Positions 136 through 6,662 of a stretch of 9,706 nucleotides of DNA are shown here, piece after piece. The notes beneath the pieces are model-generated. The model was not told the DNA's origin. It made no database searches and saw only the letters and a program-made list of their open reading frames with translations. This stretch comes from a virus. Taxonomy: Duplodnaviria > Heunggongvirae > Uroviricota > Caudoviricetes. Numbering within the stretch: the stretch's first letter is position 1; every line of letters begins with the position of its first letter. The stretch is taken from IMG/VR virus record IMGVR_UViG_2703718673_000017. One strand, written 5' to 3'. A program made the translations under genes and the position numbers.

Positions 136-405
136 TTACATCATCATTTCGCCGCCAGGCTGAGGCTCACTGCTACCGTCAGGCTGAGACACAACGCCAT
201 CTGAAACAGCACTGTCACCCGCGCCGTCTTCAGGCTCAGGAGCAGCCGGTCCCCCCAGCAGCTCATCCAGAATGGCATCCACTTCAGCATCAAGACGCGC
301 CTCAAGATTCTGGCGGAGTTGCTGTTTCAGTGCGCTTCTGACTTCTTCAGAGCGCAGGACGTCCTTCACTGCTTCAGCAGTGACCAGAGATTTTATTTCT
401 GACAT
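136..405 (-). CDS. Hypothetical protein, 89 aa, helical N-terminus and acidic Pro/Gly/Asp-rich low-complexity tail
   Basis: Internal ATG (405..403) of the track ORF 136..561. The N-terminal extension in the track overlaps the 60-aa gene in another frame and looks non-protein-like. Weak SD (GAGA). No family recognised. Confidence 0.45.
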   Translation of the reverse strand: MSEIKSLVTAEAVKDVLRSEEVRSALKQQLRQNLEARLDAEVDAILDELLGGPAAPEPEDGAGDSAVSDGVVSQPDGSSEPQPGGEMMM

Positions 406-442
406 GGGATTTTCTCGTTGAAAGGTGTTGTTAAGAAAGTTG

Positions 443-625
443 CTACGAAATGAGAGGCTCTTCGGGTTTTGTTCCGGCTGACTGGCTGGCGCTGATTTTT
501 TCCGCCGCCGCGGCATCAATCTTTTTGCGTATATAGTTCCGGATAACCTTATACCCGCCACTTACCAGATATAACGTGCACACCACCGTGCAGAAATACA
601 ATAAAATAAGCTGTACAAATCTCAT
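443..625 (-). CDS. Small membrane protein, 60 aa, one N-terminal TM helix and a basic C-terminal tail
   Basis: Track ORF. Strong SD GGGAGGG (636..630) 4 nt upstream of ATG 625..623. Hydrophobic segment FVQLILLYFCTVVCTLYLV. Lies between nanS and the holin. Confidence 0.55.
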   Translation of the reverse strand: MRFVQLILLYFCTVVCTLYLVSGGYKVIRNYIRKKIDAAAAEKISASQSAGTKPEEPLIS

Positions 626-719
626 TATCCCTCCCGGTTATTGATATGGTGTTGACATCGTTAATACCTGTTGGTTAAAAAAGTGTCCTGCATGTTTTGC
701 TTTGGATATAACGACATTT

Positions 720-767
720 GCCGCCGGTTCTGGCTCCTTGTTTTCCCTGCCCCGGCGGCCTTTTTTT
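720..767 (+). terminator. Plus-strand terminator-like hairpin with T7 run
   Basis: Perfect 8-bp GC-rich inverted repeat gccgccgg (720-727) / ccggcggc (752-759) with a 24-nt loop, followed by c + T7 (761-767). The T-run is on the plus strand only; on the minus strand it is preceded by A7. Sits just 3' of the nanS stop codon (773-775). Confidence 0.35.
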
Positions 768-772
768 CCTGC

Positions 773-2710
773 TTACGGGTTATTCACTTCCACTGTTATA
801 CTTTCAATCAGCACCGGATATGTCGCACCGCTAGTGATATCGGTCACGCGCAATTTGTCTGCCGTAAACGTGCCGACCGGTGACTGTGACAGCATGAACG
901 GCGTCCCGTCCTTACCATCAATGACCGGCGTCACCTCAATACTGTTGTTACCGGCAAAACGGAAGCCCAGCGTATGCCATTCGTTATCAAATGCGCCGAA
1001 TGACCCCAGCTTCGTGTTCTGACCAGCATTTCCCTTGTGGTACATCACATTAAGGTCTGTGGCATCGCTCTGTACGTAAAACGACGCCAGCAGGTTATGA
1101 CCGGCATTACCTTCCAGTGTGACGCCCTGAGGCAGTGAAGAAACCGGCCAGTACAGCGCCAGTGCGTACTGATTAGCTGTCAGTGTGCCATCAACTTTAA
1201 AACGACAACTGATAAGCCCGCCCTTCTCCAGCAGGTCTGCGCCATTACCGGCATCATGCTGCATAAACCACGAGGAACTTCCTGTCTGTTTGGTCCACCT
1301 CAGCGCCTTACCTCCTGCAGCACCTGCATCATCAACTACCAATGCACGCCCTCCTTCAGCTCCCCATCCCTGCGGATTCAGTAAACCACCTGACTCTGTT
1401 GCACGGTAATAAAGCAGCGTTGTCACTGATTTCCCGTCCGTTGACGGTGTTGATGGTGTGTCCGGTGACGGCTTCTCATCCGGCGGCATCACAACCTGTT
1501 CCCCACCCACCAGTTCAGCCGTCCGTCCTGCATGGAGAAGAATCGCTGAGGCAAGACGGTCAGAAATAATCCCCCTGCGTGCCCATGAGCTGAAATGGCT
1601 CGCACGGTCTGCTGACGTCCAGTTTGCCGACGTCCGGGAGGCCGCACCGTAATATCCTGATGCCGGAATATCCGGGTCTTCTTCCGGTTTGTTCGTCGGG
1701 ACATTTGCTCCGTTCTCATCGGTCATGAACGGCACAAAGTGAATATTCTTTTCCGTTTTGTTTTTGTAACTGCCGTACACCGTCTGGTAAGTGGATTCGC
1801 TCTTCTGCTTCCAGAAATAAGTTGTGTCTCCACATATCCAGGGAACACCGTCAGCAGAACCACCAGCGCACTGTCCCACCATATCTGCAAGGTCCGTACG
1901 ATATTGTTCCACTACTTCTGTAAAACGGGCTGTGTGATTTGCTGGCGTTCCGTCAAAGTCAAATTCCCCCTGCATCCACACCACGGCAAGCAGCACATTT
2001 TTCGGGTTCTTTGCCAGCGCGGCTTTTGTACGACCGATGAGATCCTTATACAGCGGCCTGCCCACACCCCAGCGGGTAGAACTCTCTGAGGCACCGGTCA
2101 CGTCACTGTATGTTCCATCTGCCCCGGTGGTGAAAGCTGAACCACCACGGCAGCACGGAACCAGAAGAATACCCGCATTCGCCGGTATAAACGGCAGCAG
2201 CTTTTTGGCAATATGCAGCCCCTGCCCCACGGTTCCGTACTGACCTTTCGACAGGTCAGCTTTCGGATGGTTAAGACGGCTCATGTCCTGTACATCATGC
2301 AGACAGTGGTCTGCCGGAATAATGTCGTTATATTTACAGGGAGCGCCATCCGGCGTCACTGTGCTGCGACGAGCCAGTTGCTTTATACGCGGGTCAGGAC
2401 GGTCATATGTCTGCGGCAGAGGAAGCCCCTCACCGTAAGCCATGCCGTTCGACTGCCCGGCCAGTGGAATAACGTAGTAATAATCTGGCTCCGTGGTGAC
2501 CACTCCCGGATAGCCACCATCCCCCGTGCCGGGCACAACCACTGGCGTGGTCACATCCCCCTCCGCGGCAATCGCCTGCATCAGGGTATAAGGGGTTATG
2601 GCCACAGGACTACCAAACGGCTGCCAGCCCTCTTTCAGTTTGTGTGTCAGCTTTTCCGCAAGATCTGACGGCGACGCCGCCCTGACAACATCATAATGTT
2701 TAATCGACAT
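773..2710 (-). CDS. nanS: Prophage-encoded sialate (9-O-acetyl-N-acetylneuraminic acid) O-acetylesterase NanS-p, 645 aa
   Basis: Track ORF with ATG start and SD GGGAGA 6 nt upstream. N-terminus MSIKHYDVVRAASPSDLAEKLTHKLKEGWQPFGSPVAITPYT is what I recall for EHEC/Stx-prophage NanS-p (DUF1737 N-domain). Followed by an SGNH/SASA-like esterase core, a Pro/Thr/Ser-rich linker (PPDEKPSPDTPSTPSTDGKS) and a C-terminal beta-rich domain. Sits between Q and the lysis genes, as in Stx-type prophages. Confidence 0.9.
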   Translation of the reverse strand: MSIKHYDVVRAASPSDLAEKLTHKLKEGWQPFGSPVAITPYTLMQAIAAEGDVTTPVVVPGTGDGGYPGVVTTEPDYYYVIPLAGQSNGMAYGEGLPLPQTYDRPDPRIKQLARRSTVTPDGAPCKYNDIIPADHCLHDVQDMSRLNHPKADLSKGQYGTVGQGLHIAKKLLPFIPANAGILLVPCCRGGSAFTTGADGTYSDVTGASESSTRWGVGRPLYKDLIGRTKAALAKNPKNVLLAVVWMQGEFDFDGTPANHTARFTEVVEQYRTDLADMVGQCAGGSADGVPWICGDTTYFWKQKSESTYQTVYGSYKNKTEKNIHFVPFMTDENGANVPTNKPEEDPDIPASGYYGAASRTSANWTSADRASHFSSWARRGIISDRLASAILLHAGRTAELVGGEQVVMPPDEKPSPDTPSTPSTDGKSVTTLLYYRATESGGLLNPQGWGAEGGRALVVDDAGAAGGKALRWTKQTGSSSWFMQHDAGNGADLLEKGGLISCRFKVDGTLTANQYALALYWPVSSLPQGVTLEGNAGHNLLASFYVQSDATDLNVMYHKGNAGQNTKLGSFGAFDNEWHTLGFRFAGNNSIEVTPVIDGKDGTPFMLSQSPVGTFTADKLRVTDITSGATYPVLIESITVEVNNP

Positions 2711-2823: not shown

Positions 2824-3024
2824 GGAAATAAAGGGATAACGATGATAGTTTGAGAAAAACAGAAATAACACTTTTGTGGCAAAGCATGGTGCCGGGTGCC
2901 TCCCGGTGAATTCAGTACCAGCACCTGAATCCGCGATTATCCCATATACCTGGTTGCTGATTGCCCCTCCGCACAGGGGGATTCGCCATGCAGTAGTATT
3001 TTTAATAAACAGTAAACAAAAAAA

Positions 3025-3629: not shown

Positions 3630-4451
3630 CTATCTGGTCACCTTTTTCAGTTGTTGTTCTGCCCATGCTTCTTCAATATCAAACTGCACCACCAGCGTAT
3701 CGTAAAAACGTTTAACTGTTTTTTTCCATGTATCAAGAGATATGGCATCGGTTACATTACATATGGCATTAAATGCCTCCGTTGAAGGTAATCTTTCATA
3801 GCCACGACCACCACAACGCTGGCAGTCTCTGATAACAGGCATACCACGTTTTACCGACTCTTCACGATGAATGGCAACACCGCGCCCACGAAAATCTTTA
3901 CAGGCGGTGGAAACCTCCCCCTTCCCTCCACACTCCGGACAGGCAACTTTTACCACCTCCCTGACTTTTTTCCATTCCTCCCAGTAAGACGGATACACGC
4001 CTTTTGTGCACTTTGCCCACACTGGCGGCTTACCATCCGGATACTGGATCTTGTTTGTAAAAACCTCGCTTTCAATAAATTTTTTTCCGTGACAACAGGG
4101 GCACTGTTTTTTGCTCGCCGCGCTACGGGCATAATCTTCAAACGCATACGAAGCCATAATACGCATCACTGCCGGTTTTATTTCTGCCGGGAGTTTTCTT
4201 AACGCCGCCACGCGATCACACCGACTGAGTGCATATTCTGTCAGCAATTCTGTTGCCCGCTCTCTGTCATTCATACTAATGCCCATTTTCCCAAGGAACG
4301 CAGAAAACCCCATCTCAGCCCAATTCTGTGTCATGCCCTGCGCGGCCATCACATCAGTGATACTCAGCGTATCTTTCGACGTTGAGGCCGATGCATCAGT
4401 CAGGCCGGGGGATTTTGGGGAGTAGTATTTCGGTAAATCTTCCAGTTTCAT
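3630..4451 (-). CDS. Q: Late-gene antitermination protein Q (Phage_antitermQ family, QuuQ/Q82-like), 273 aa
   Basis: Track ORF. ATG overlaps the rusA stop (ATGA at 4451..4448). Motifs YSPKSP, DVMAAQGM, FYDTLVVQ and Cys pairs (CPCCHGKK ... CPECGGKG ... CQRCGGRG) resemble Qin-type Q proteins as I recall them. Position immediately 3' of rusA and 5' of PR'/tR' is diagnostic. Confidence 0.8.
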   Translation of the reverse strand: MKLEDLPKYYSPKSPGLTDASASTSKDTLSITDVMAAQGMTQNWAEMGFSAFLGKMGISMNDRERATELLTEYALSRCDRVAALRKLPAEIKPAVMRIMASYAFEDYARSAASKKQCPCCHGKKFIESEVFTNKIQYPDGKPPVWAKCTKGVYPSYWEEWKKVREVVKVACPECGGKGEVSTACKDFRGRGVAIHREESVKRGMPVIRDCQRCGGRGYERLPSTEAFNAICNVTDAISLDTWKKTVKRFYDTLVVQFDIEEAWAEQQLKKVTR

Positions 4452-6331: not shown

Positions 6332-6487
6332 TTACTCCTCAGGTTCGTAAGCTGTGAAGACAGCGACCTCCGTCTGGCCGGTTCGGATTCGTACCTCGCA
6401 GAGGTCTTTCCTCGTTACCAGTGCCGTCACTATGACGGTTAAACAGATGACGATCAGGGCGATTAACATCGCCTTTTGCTGCTTCAT
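6332..6487 (-). CDS. hok: Hok-family type I toxin (HokC/Gef, HokD/RelF-like), 51 aa
   Basis: MKQQKAMLIALIVICLTVIVTALVTRKDLCEVRIRTGQTEVAVFTAYEPEE matches the Hok/Gef family (compare Gef MKQHKAMIVALIVICITAVVAALVTRKDLCEVHIRTGQTEVAVFTAYESE). SD AAGGAG 8 nt upstream of ATG 6487..6485. Confidence 0.9.
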   Translation of the reverse strand: MKQQKAMLIALIVICLTVIVTALVTRKDLCEVRIRTGQTEVAVFTAYEPEE

Positions 6488-6544
6488 AACCTGCTTCTCC
6501 TTGCCTTTCGGCGCGTAAGAGGCTAACCTACGTTTGTGAAGCAT
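6332..6544 (-). CDS. mok: Mok-like in-frame N-terminally extended reading frame overlapping hok (70 aa)
   Basis: Track ORF with ATG 6544..6542, extending hok by 19 codons in the same frame, as in chromosomal mokC/hokC. GAGG lies 9 nt upstream. Confidence 0.6.
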   Translation of the reverse strand: MLHKRRLASYAPKGKEKQVMKQQKAMLIALIVICLTVIVTALVTRKDLCEVRIRTGQTEVAVFTAYEPEE

Positions 6545-6610
6545 AGATTGGGCCTCAGATTAATGTTAAGCGTCTTGCAGGACGCGTAATGTTAACTGGG
6601 GCTTTTCTCT
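6540..6610 (+). ncRNA. sok: Putative Sok-like antisense RNA (boundaries approximate)
   Basis: Plus strand, antisense to the mok translation-initiation region. Candidate promoters: TTGTGA (6534-6539) with ATTAAT (6559-6564), or TTGCCT (6501-6506) with TAACCT (6524-6529). A 7-bp closing stem (6552-6558 with 6596-6602) is followed by a T-rich run 6603-6610. Ends are inferred by analogy to R1 hok/sok and are not verified. Confidence 0.35.
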
Positions 6611-6662
6611 GTCTGCCTTACGGTGGCATGCCCGAGGCAGACAGCCTCAAGCACCCGCAGCA

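Follow-up and report, generated by a model that had tools for sequence, protein, structure and literature searches.

The plus-strand unit between the esterase and DUF1378 genes of prophage Sp6 is the gene of the Hfq-bound small RNA EcOnc33

Does the gap between a sialate esterase gene and a DUF1378 gene in a prophage late region carry, on the strand opposite to the genes, a small RNA gene of its own, and if so, on what would that RNA act? The question arose from a first-pass annotation of the window (the whole stretch of 9,706 nucleotides analysed here). The window corresponds to the late region of Sp6, a prophage of E. coli O157:H7, and its genes are encoded on the minus strand. From the letters alone that annotation had proposed a candidate plus-strand small RNA unit, antisense to the 3′ end of the esterase gene nanS, and it had offered as an alternative a terminator that simply blocks antisense read-through. 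The elements that it had named, TTGACA, TAAAAA at a spacing of 18 nt, an 8-bp stem and a T7 tract, are all present on the plus strand at the positions in Table 1, and the unit does diverge from the 60-aa gene as described. In the annotation of strain Sakai, to which window positions 401–1000 are identical, the same gap lies between ECs_1527 (the esterase) and ECs_1528. Positions 420–800 are found at 100% identity in 309 complete E. coli genomes, mostly of O157:H7 and including EDL933.

Table 1. Positions in the window of the unit and of the late-region features around it.
Feature	Position	Strand	Remarks
Q antiterminator	3630–4451	minus	
Short PR′ transcript	2851–3017	minus	Rfam STnc100 match (94 bits)
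tR′	2805–2823	minus	G/C hairpin with T8, behind the STnc100 match
Sialate esterase	773–2710	minus	SASA/nanS type
Intercistronic gap	626–772		147 nt; holds the unit on the opposite strand
−35 hexamer	652–657	plus	TTGACA; read from the letters
−10-like element	675–681	plus	A-rich; TAAAAA 676–681 (18-nt spacer), overlapping TTAAAA 675–680 (17-nt spacer)
EcOnc33 RNA body	687–767	plus	5′ end probably at 687–689, 3′ end in the T tract
Putative seed	687–707	plus	CCUGCAUGUUUUGCUUUGGAU; single-stranded 5′ region; sRNA half of the arcA and dps hybrids in the partial target list
Terminator hairpin	720–759	plus	8-bp G/C stem; 24-nt C/U-rich loop holding the invariant CTTGTTTTCCCT
Stem arms	720–727 and 752–759	plus	GCCGCCGG pairs with CCGGCGGC; all G/C
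T7 tract	761–767	plus	Terminator U tail; the proximal face of Hfq likely binds here
DUF1378 gene	443–625	minus	60 aa; diverges from the unit
DUF826 gene, then holin and lysozyme genes	beyond DUF1378	minus	

The unit at 652–767 is the already known EcOnc33, a small RNA gene of prophage Sp6 reported in 2014. In O157, lambdoid prophages encode sRNAs that are bound by Hfq and antisense to the late operon, and these ‘convergent’ sRNAs are located between a gene inserted downstream of PR′ (a ‘moron’) and the next open reading frame (Tree et al., 2014, Mol Cell 55:199, PMC4104026). The oligonucleotide table of that study contains a northern probe for EcOnc33, AAATGTCGTTATATCCAAAGCAAAACATGCAGGAC, which is the exact reverse complement of window positions 685–719 (1557239–1557273 of the Sakai chromosome, NC_002695.2), and the RNA that it detected is therefore that of the plus strand of the window. 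Table S2 of the same study places EcOnc33 on the chromosome, in Sp6, with an Hfq-CRAC peak at 1557089–1557136 on strand ‘−’, that is, minus in Sakai and plus in the window; it also records a predicted Rho-independent terminator, a northern band of ~71 nt, 5/5 passes and an AUC of 25.6M (PMC4104026). This value, close to that of the third-ranked EcOnc03, puts EcOnc33 among the stronger Hfq-binding signals of the newly reported EHEC sRNAs. EcOnc33 is also represented among the hybrids recovered by RNase E-CLASH (Waters et al., 2017, EMBO J 36:374, PMC5286369), where one read half, CCTGCATGTTTTGCTTTGGAT, has the coordinates 1557130–1557110 and matches plus-strand positions 687–707. The position of this read half fixes the mapping between the two numberings (window position = 1557817 minus the paper's coordinate; offset +141), and the CRAC peak therefore corresponds to window positions 681–728. 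The probe, the location in Sp6, the strand opposite to the late genes, the flanking genes, the published coordinates and the CLASH sequences in the partial hybrid lists agree exactly, with no sequence difference.

The existence of the unit, its strand, its binding to Hfq and, in the partial hybrid lists, its hybrids with arcA and dps come from these published data and are confirmed by the mapping. The independent plus-strand sRNA that had been proposed, from promoter to hairpin and T7, is in fact this published RNA, Hfq-bound and detected by northern blot, so that at this locus a real sRNA gene could be recovered by reading the raw sequence. The published record that we could find for EcOnc33 consists of one row in a table, the size of a northern band and lists of hybrids; our literature search met the name in no main text, and found a promoter, start site, seed or function nowhere in print. 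Rfam holds no family for it, and there is no Rfam match at the locus, either at gathering score over the whole window or at E ≤ 10 over positions 400–1000. EcOnc33 is accordingly a known, functionally uncharacterised sRNA and not a new kind of element, and what we did not find in print is its anatomy, namely the promoter that withstands an 11-bp deletion, the CUGCAU seed conserved at the 5′ end and the motif that is invariant in the loop. Overall, we give a probability of roughly 80% to the reading that plus-strand positions 652–767 are the EcOnc33 gene of the lambdoid prophage Sp6 and its relatives, encoding an Hfq-dependent RNA that has its own promoter and acts in trans through its 5′ end.

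On the sequence by itself the case for such a unit would be only moderate; the comparative and published experimental evidence puts it far beyond chance. The −35 hexamer matches the consensus at six of six positions, and it is the sole TTGACA on either strand of the 9.7-kb window. The −10 element, read either as TAAAAA or as TTAAAA, matches at four of six positions and has no T at −7, with a spacer of 17–18 nt. A consensus scan reported no sigma-70 site at the locus, because the −10 element lacks the T at position 6. The −10 region (CCTG..GGTTAAAA) is similar to that upstream of AsxR and EcOnc03 (GGTTAAAAT), two sRNAs whose 5′ ends have been mapped by RACE (Tree et al., 2014, PMC4104026). CLASH read halves in the partial hybrid lists cover 687–707 and 689–710 and begin 6–8 nt past the proposed −10 element, which is where a start had been expected from the promoter. 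A sigma-70-type promoter composed of TTGACA, a spacer of 17–18 nt and T(T/A)AAAA would thus start EcOnc33 at about 687–689, and its transcription would be independent of the Q-dependent late promoter; we infer both the exact start site and the activity of the promoter. From such a start to the T tract the RNA should measure 77–81 nt, which is 6–10 nt longer than the published ~71 nt. The earlier estimate of a transcript of about 80 nt therefore stands as regards a discrete RNA and not as regards its published size, a gap that could reflect 3′ trimming, a more downstream start or the calibration of the gel. Similarly, the RNA was expected to overlap the 3′ region of nanS; it does cover the intercistronic region downstream of that gene and stops short of the nanS coding sequence.

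The conservation of these elements was followed across the gap in 24 distinct full-length variants, 78–97% identical, taken from E. coli genomes and from IMG/VR prophage contigs. The prophage copies on viral contigs were collected with a pattern comprising the loop and the T tract and filtered by local BLAST; in genome contigs the same pattern was too loose, giving chance matches in unrelated AT-rich genomes, and was abandoned. Despite indels, TTGACA, the 17–18-nt spacer and T(T/A)AAAA are kept in all 24 variants. The −10 element is followed after 4–7 nt by CTGCAT in 23 of them and by CCGTAA in the remaining one. The promoter is contained in an imperfect direct repeat, TTGATATGGTG / TTGACATCGTT, at 641–662 of the plus strand, and in eight variants (L012, L015, L139, L162, L166, L173, L199 and L246) an 11-bp deletion fuses the two copies, leaving TTGACA still 17 nt from TAAAAA. 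Separately, L012, L015, L139, L162, L173, L199 and L246 have a 15-nt insertion at about 700–705 that doubles the 5′ motif (GCATTTTTTGCT-CA-GCATATTTTTGCT), so that their RNA would be ~98 nt long with two putative seed copies.

Coding explanations for the gap were considered and rejected. An ATG at 692 of the plus strand opens a frame that reads through the terminator, and it is absent from variants with T at 694. Two further plus-strand frames, 671–883 and 702–1022, have TTG starts and extend, antisense, into the coding region of nanS, and an 18-codon frame on the minus strand is frameshifted in variants with a 1-nt deletion.

The downstream end of the unit has the G/C-rich stem and following U tract of an intrinsic terminator, a single C separating the all-G/C 8-bp stem from T7. 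Its loop, of 24 nt (18–19 nt in short-loop variants), is unusually long, outside the 3–8 nt of a short-loop intrinsic terminator, and has at most three weak inner pairs; a scan for terminators by consensus failed to pick up the hairpin because of this loop. Folding of the RNA from 688 to 767, which had been suggested as a check, gave −22.8 kcal/mol (z = −2.1), a value that 8 of 200 shuffled sequences equalled or bettered. In the minimum-energy fold the RNA is essentially unpaired over roughly its first 33 nt, AUUU lies ahead of the stem and U7 behind it. There is no T run behind the hairpin on the minus strand, which reads AAATG there, and the hairpin therefore terminates the plus strand only and cannot end late transcription. 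Its proposed role would be to end EcOnc33 just before the esterase stop codon (773–775, minus strand), 6 nt short of which the T tract finishes.

That the stem forms in vivo is documented by published data, confirmed by the mapping: an intramolecular CLASH hybrid supported by 99 unique reads in the partial hybrid lists joins CCTGCCCCGGCGGCCTTT (746–763) to ATTTGCCGCCGGTTCTGG (716–733), which are the two stem arms. Conservation of the hairpin in related prophages, on which the original proposal had been made to depend, is borne out, since the stem and the T tract are kept in all 24 full-length variants, with at least six T in each. The 5′ arm is invariant, and the basal G–C pair has become G–U in 4 of 15 aligned variants, a change that retains pairing in the plus-strand RNA only. 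A covariation check on the aligned variants found no compensatory stem changes, and with a stem so nearly invariant covariation is therefore uninformative either way. Within the loop, the 12-nt segment CTTGTTTTCCCT is invariant although the loop itself has an indel of 5–6 nt.

Terminator hairpin, U7 tail, preceding AUUU and single-stranded 5′ end together form the layout of an Hfq-dependent sRNA. In the mechanism that we propose, the hairpin, the U tail and the preceding AUUU would bind Hfq, while the unstructured, G/U-rich 5′ end (CUGCAUGUUUUGCUUUGG) would pair in trans with mRNAs. EcOnc33 is most likely an Hfq-dependent, trans-acting sRNA of this type, pairing through its 5′ end. Its best CLASH partner in the partial target list is arcA (ECs_5359), with five unique hybrids that come from both replicates and both orientations (FDR 2.7e-4) and overlap an Hfq site; the target half, AUUUAGGUAGCAAACAUGCAGACC, spans the start codon. 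The coding region of dps (ECs_0890) is a weaker partner (two hybrids, FDR 0.0065), and one non-significant hybrid in the list involves the EcOnc33 loop. The interactions with arcA and dps derive from a single high-throughput dataset, with few reads and a partial target list, and we found no reporter, mutant or genetic test of EcOnc33 targets in the literature.

In the predicted arcA duplex CUGCAUGUUU(U)GC of the sRNA pairs with GCAAACAUGCAG of the mRNA. Against arcA positions −23 to +7 the duplex is predicted at −22.8 kcal/mol (duplexfold), a value equalled by 0.7% of 1000 shuffled sRNA 5′ ends, and the pairing is retained in most variants. Together, the CLASH partner and the duplex prediction therefore favour translational repression in trans through a seed at the 5′ end, arcA being the leading candidate: pairing at the start region (GCAAAC-AUG-CAG) would block ribosome loading. 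A fuller version of this model, which we offer as tentative, is that EcOnc33 represses arcA translation through its invariant 5′ CUGCAU together with UUUGC, pairing across the region from the Shine–Dalgarno sequence to the start, so that a resident Sp6-type prophage would retune the global regulator of aerobic and anaerobic respiration in its host, and perhaps dps as well, and that after induction the complementary late mRNA would titrate the sRNA and relieve the repression. Both the repression of arcA and any influence of EcOnc33, once induction has occurred, on the late mRNA complementary to it are what we infer. If the arcA interaction is true, a cryptic prophage would modulate the respiratory master regulator of O157:H7, which would be relevant to gut colonisation. 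Blocking of a global regulator's translation has a possible parallel in HnrS (EcOnc10–12), a 66-nt, Hfq-dependent sRNA of prophage late regions that blocks translation of hha at the ribosome-binding site (Poudyal et al., 2026, PMC13502914). HnrS differs from EcOnc33 in having another sequence, in residing in other prophages (Sp9, Sp10 and Sp12) and in being multicopy, whereas EcOnc33 occurs in most carrier genomes as a single copy (median one place).

The placement of EcOnc33 would also fit an action mainly in cis, on the part of the polycistronic late mRNA that runs from the esterase stop to the DUF1378 start: after induction, cleavage by RNase III or transcriptional interference would tune the lysis genes, or the late mRNA would soak up the RNA. 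Over ~80 nt EcOnc33 is perfectly complementary to the late transcript, in a stretch that lies 61 nt ahead of the DUF1378 start. All variants conserve its place beside the lysis cassette, as is the case also for PasA and PasC. However, EcOnc33 was detected, and was Hfq-bound, in uninduced cultures, in which late transcription stops at tR′, upstream of nanS. Moreover, the partial hybrid lists contain trans hybrids with core-genome mRNAs, and among the rows listed no hybrid with the sense strand is seen. We consider regulation in cis rather unlikely as the main function of the RNA, and retain pairing in trans through the 5′ end as the preferred reading.

PasA and PasC, from EPEC E2348/69, offer a close comparison for this placement, and share with EcOnc33 the niche and orientation (esterase, antisense sRNA, holin and lysozyme genes), a similar size (78–85 nt), a promoter of the form ATTGATA-N4/5-TTGACA followed by an A-rich −10, an RNA that starts with CTGC, and an end consisting of a G/C stem and T7 just ahead of the esterase stop. 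In contrast, the RNA bodies show at most a marginal similarity, and the proposed seed of PasA overlaps its terminator stem whereas the EcOnc33 hybrids in the partial list use the 5′ end. An nhmmer profile built from the EcOnc33 variants matched the PasA locus, at a second unit in prophage PP2 of E2348/69, with E = 0.04 and PasC with E = 0.8, and these matches, colinear and weak, comprise mostly the promoter and the T tract. The EHEC homologues of PasA and PasC have been named as EcOnc51/52, not EcOnc33 (Pearl Mizrahi, 2021, PMC8550237; Zhu, Shabalina, & Storz, 2026, preprint). With a marginal profile similarity and other named homologues, EcOnc33 is therefore best regarded as a positional analogue, and possibly a distant relative, and not as a PasA/PasC member. 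In the PP2 locus itself (L005), two tandem sRNA-like units lie antisense between the esterase stop and pasA. Each unit combines TTGACA and an A-rich −10 with a G/C stem and T7; the second unit, which is PasC-like, abuts the esterase stop and matches the 3′ end of the ‘minor 236-nt’ PasA.

A different function is suggested by AgvB and AsxR, namely that EcOnc33 is an anti-sRNA, or sponge, that neutralises a core sRNA instead of regulating mRNAs. Like EcOnc33, AgvB, AsxR and EcOnc03 are prophage-encoded, Hfq-bound, short and antisense to the late operon after an insert downstream of PR′, and they have their own promoters with a GGTTAAAA(T/A) −10 region and an intrinsic terminator; niche, orientation, size class and the similar −10 region are the points in favour of such a role. 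However, these RNAs, of 51–60 nt, have in common a 42-nt 3′ module, and its conserved sequence (GTATCTCATGC..TTGCCCGAACCC) is absent from EcOnc33, which has no similarity to them in sequence or structure and no match to RF02702 (AgvB) or RF02703 (AsxR) at E ≤ 10. An assignment of EcOnc33 to AgvB or AsxR was rejected on these grounds. Furthermore, the listed hybrid partners of EcOnc33 are mRNAs, whereas the partner of AgvB, AsxR and EcOnc03 is a core sRNA. A sponge is consequently an improbable role, and mRNA regulation in trans remains the reading that we prefer.

The alternative with which the locus was first annotated, an insulating terminator that keeps stray antisense transcription out of nanS and beside which TTGACA is incidental, could draw on the weak consensus of the −10 element and on the occurrence of the hairpin and T tract alone on a plasmid beside an IS3 element, but it is highly improbable given that there is no plus-strand gene upstream that needs termination, that a discrete, Hfq-bound RNA is made whose 5′ end, in the partial hybrid lists, lies 6–8 nt past the −10, and that the promoter, itself conserved, survives the 11-bp deletion in eight variants.

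Of 5426 complete E. coli genomes, 363 carry the unit, as do many IMG/VR prophage contigs, while searches of the INPHARED collection of sequenced phages with window positions 640–780, near and distant modes included, gave no match. The unit may thus occur solely in resident prophages, which are possibly defective. The plasmid copy (L013, 1501–1554; NZ_CP076711.1, a 69-kb plasmid) comprises the hairpin, the T tract and the loop motif alone and lies beside an IS3 pseudogene. It has neither the promoter nor the 5′ region and is probably a recombination remnant.

Two further RNA elements, the only Rfam matches elsewhere in the window, accompany EcOnc33 in Sp6. The STnc100 match is to a relative of StxS and PasD: the short PR′ transcript and tR′ lie directly upstream of the esterase gene, with no stx genes between. 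STnc100, StxS and PasD resemble EcOnc33 as Hfq-binding sRNAs of the same prophage late region, and differ from it in being on the sense strand, in arising when the late transcript terminates prematurely and in their unrelated sequence. The other match, to the sok antitoxin RNA (RF01794, 115 bits), is at 6332–6656 of the minus strand and overlaps a 70-codon open reading frame of the hok/mok type, a hok/sok toxin–antitoxin module in the early region of the prophage.
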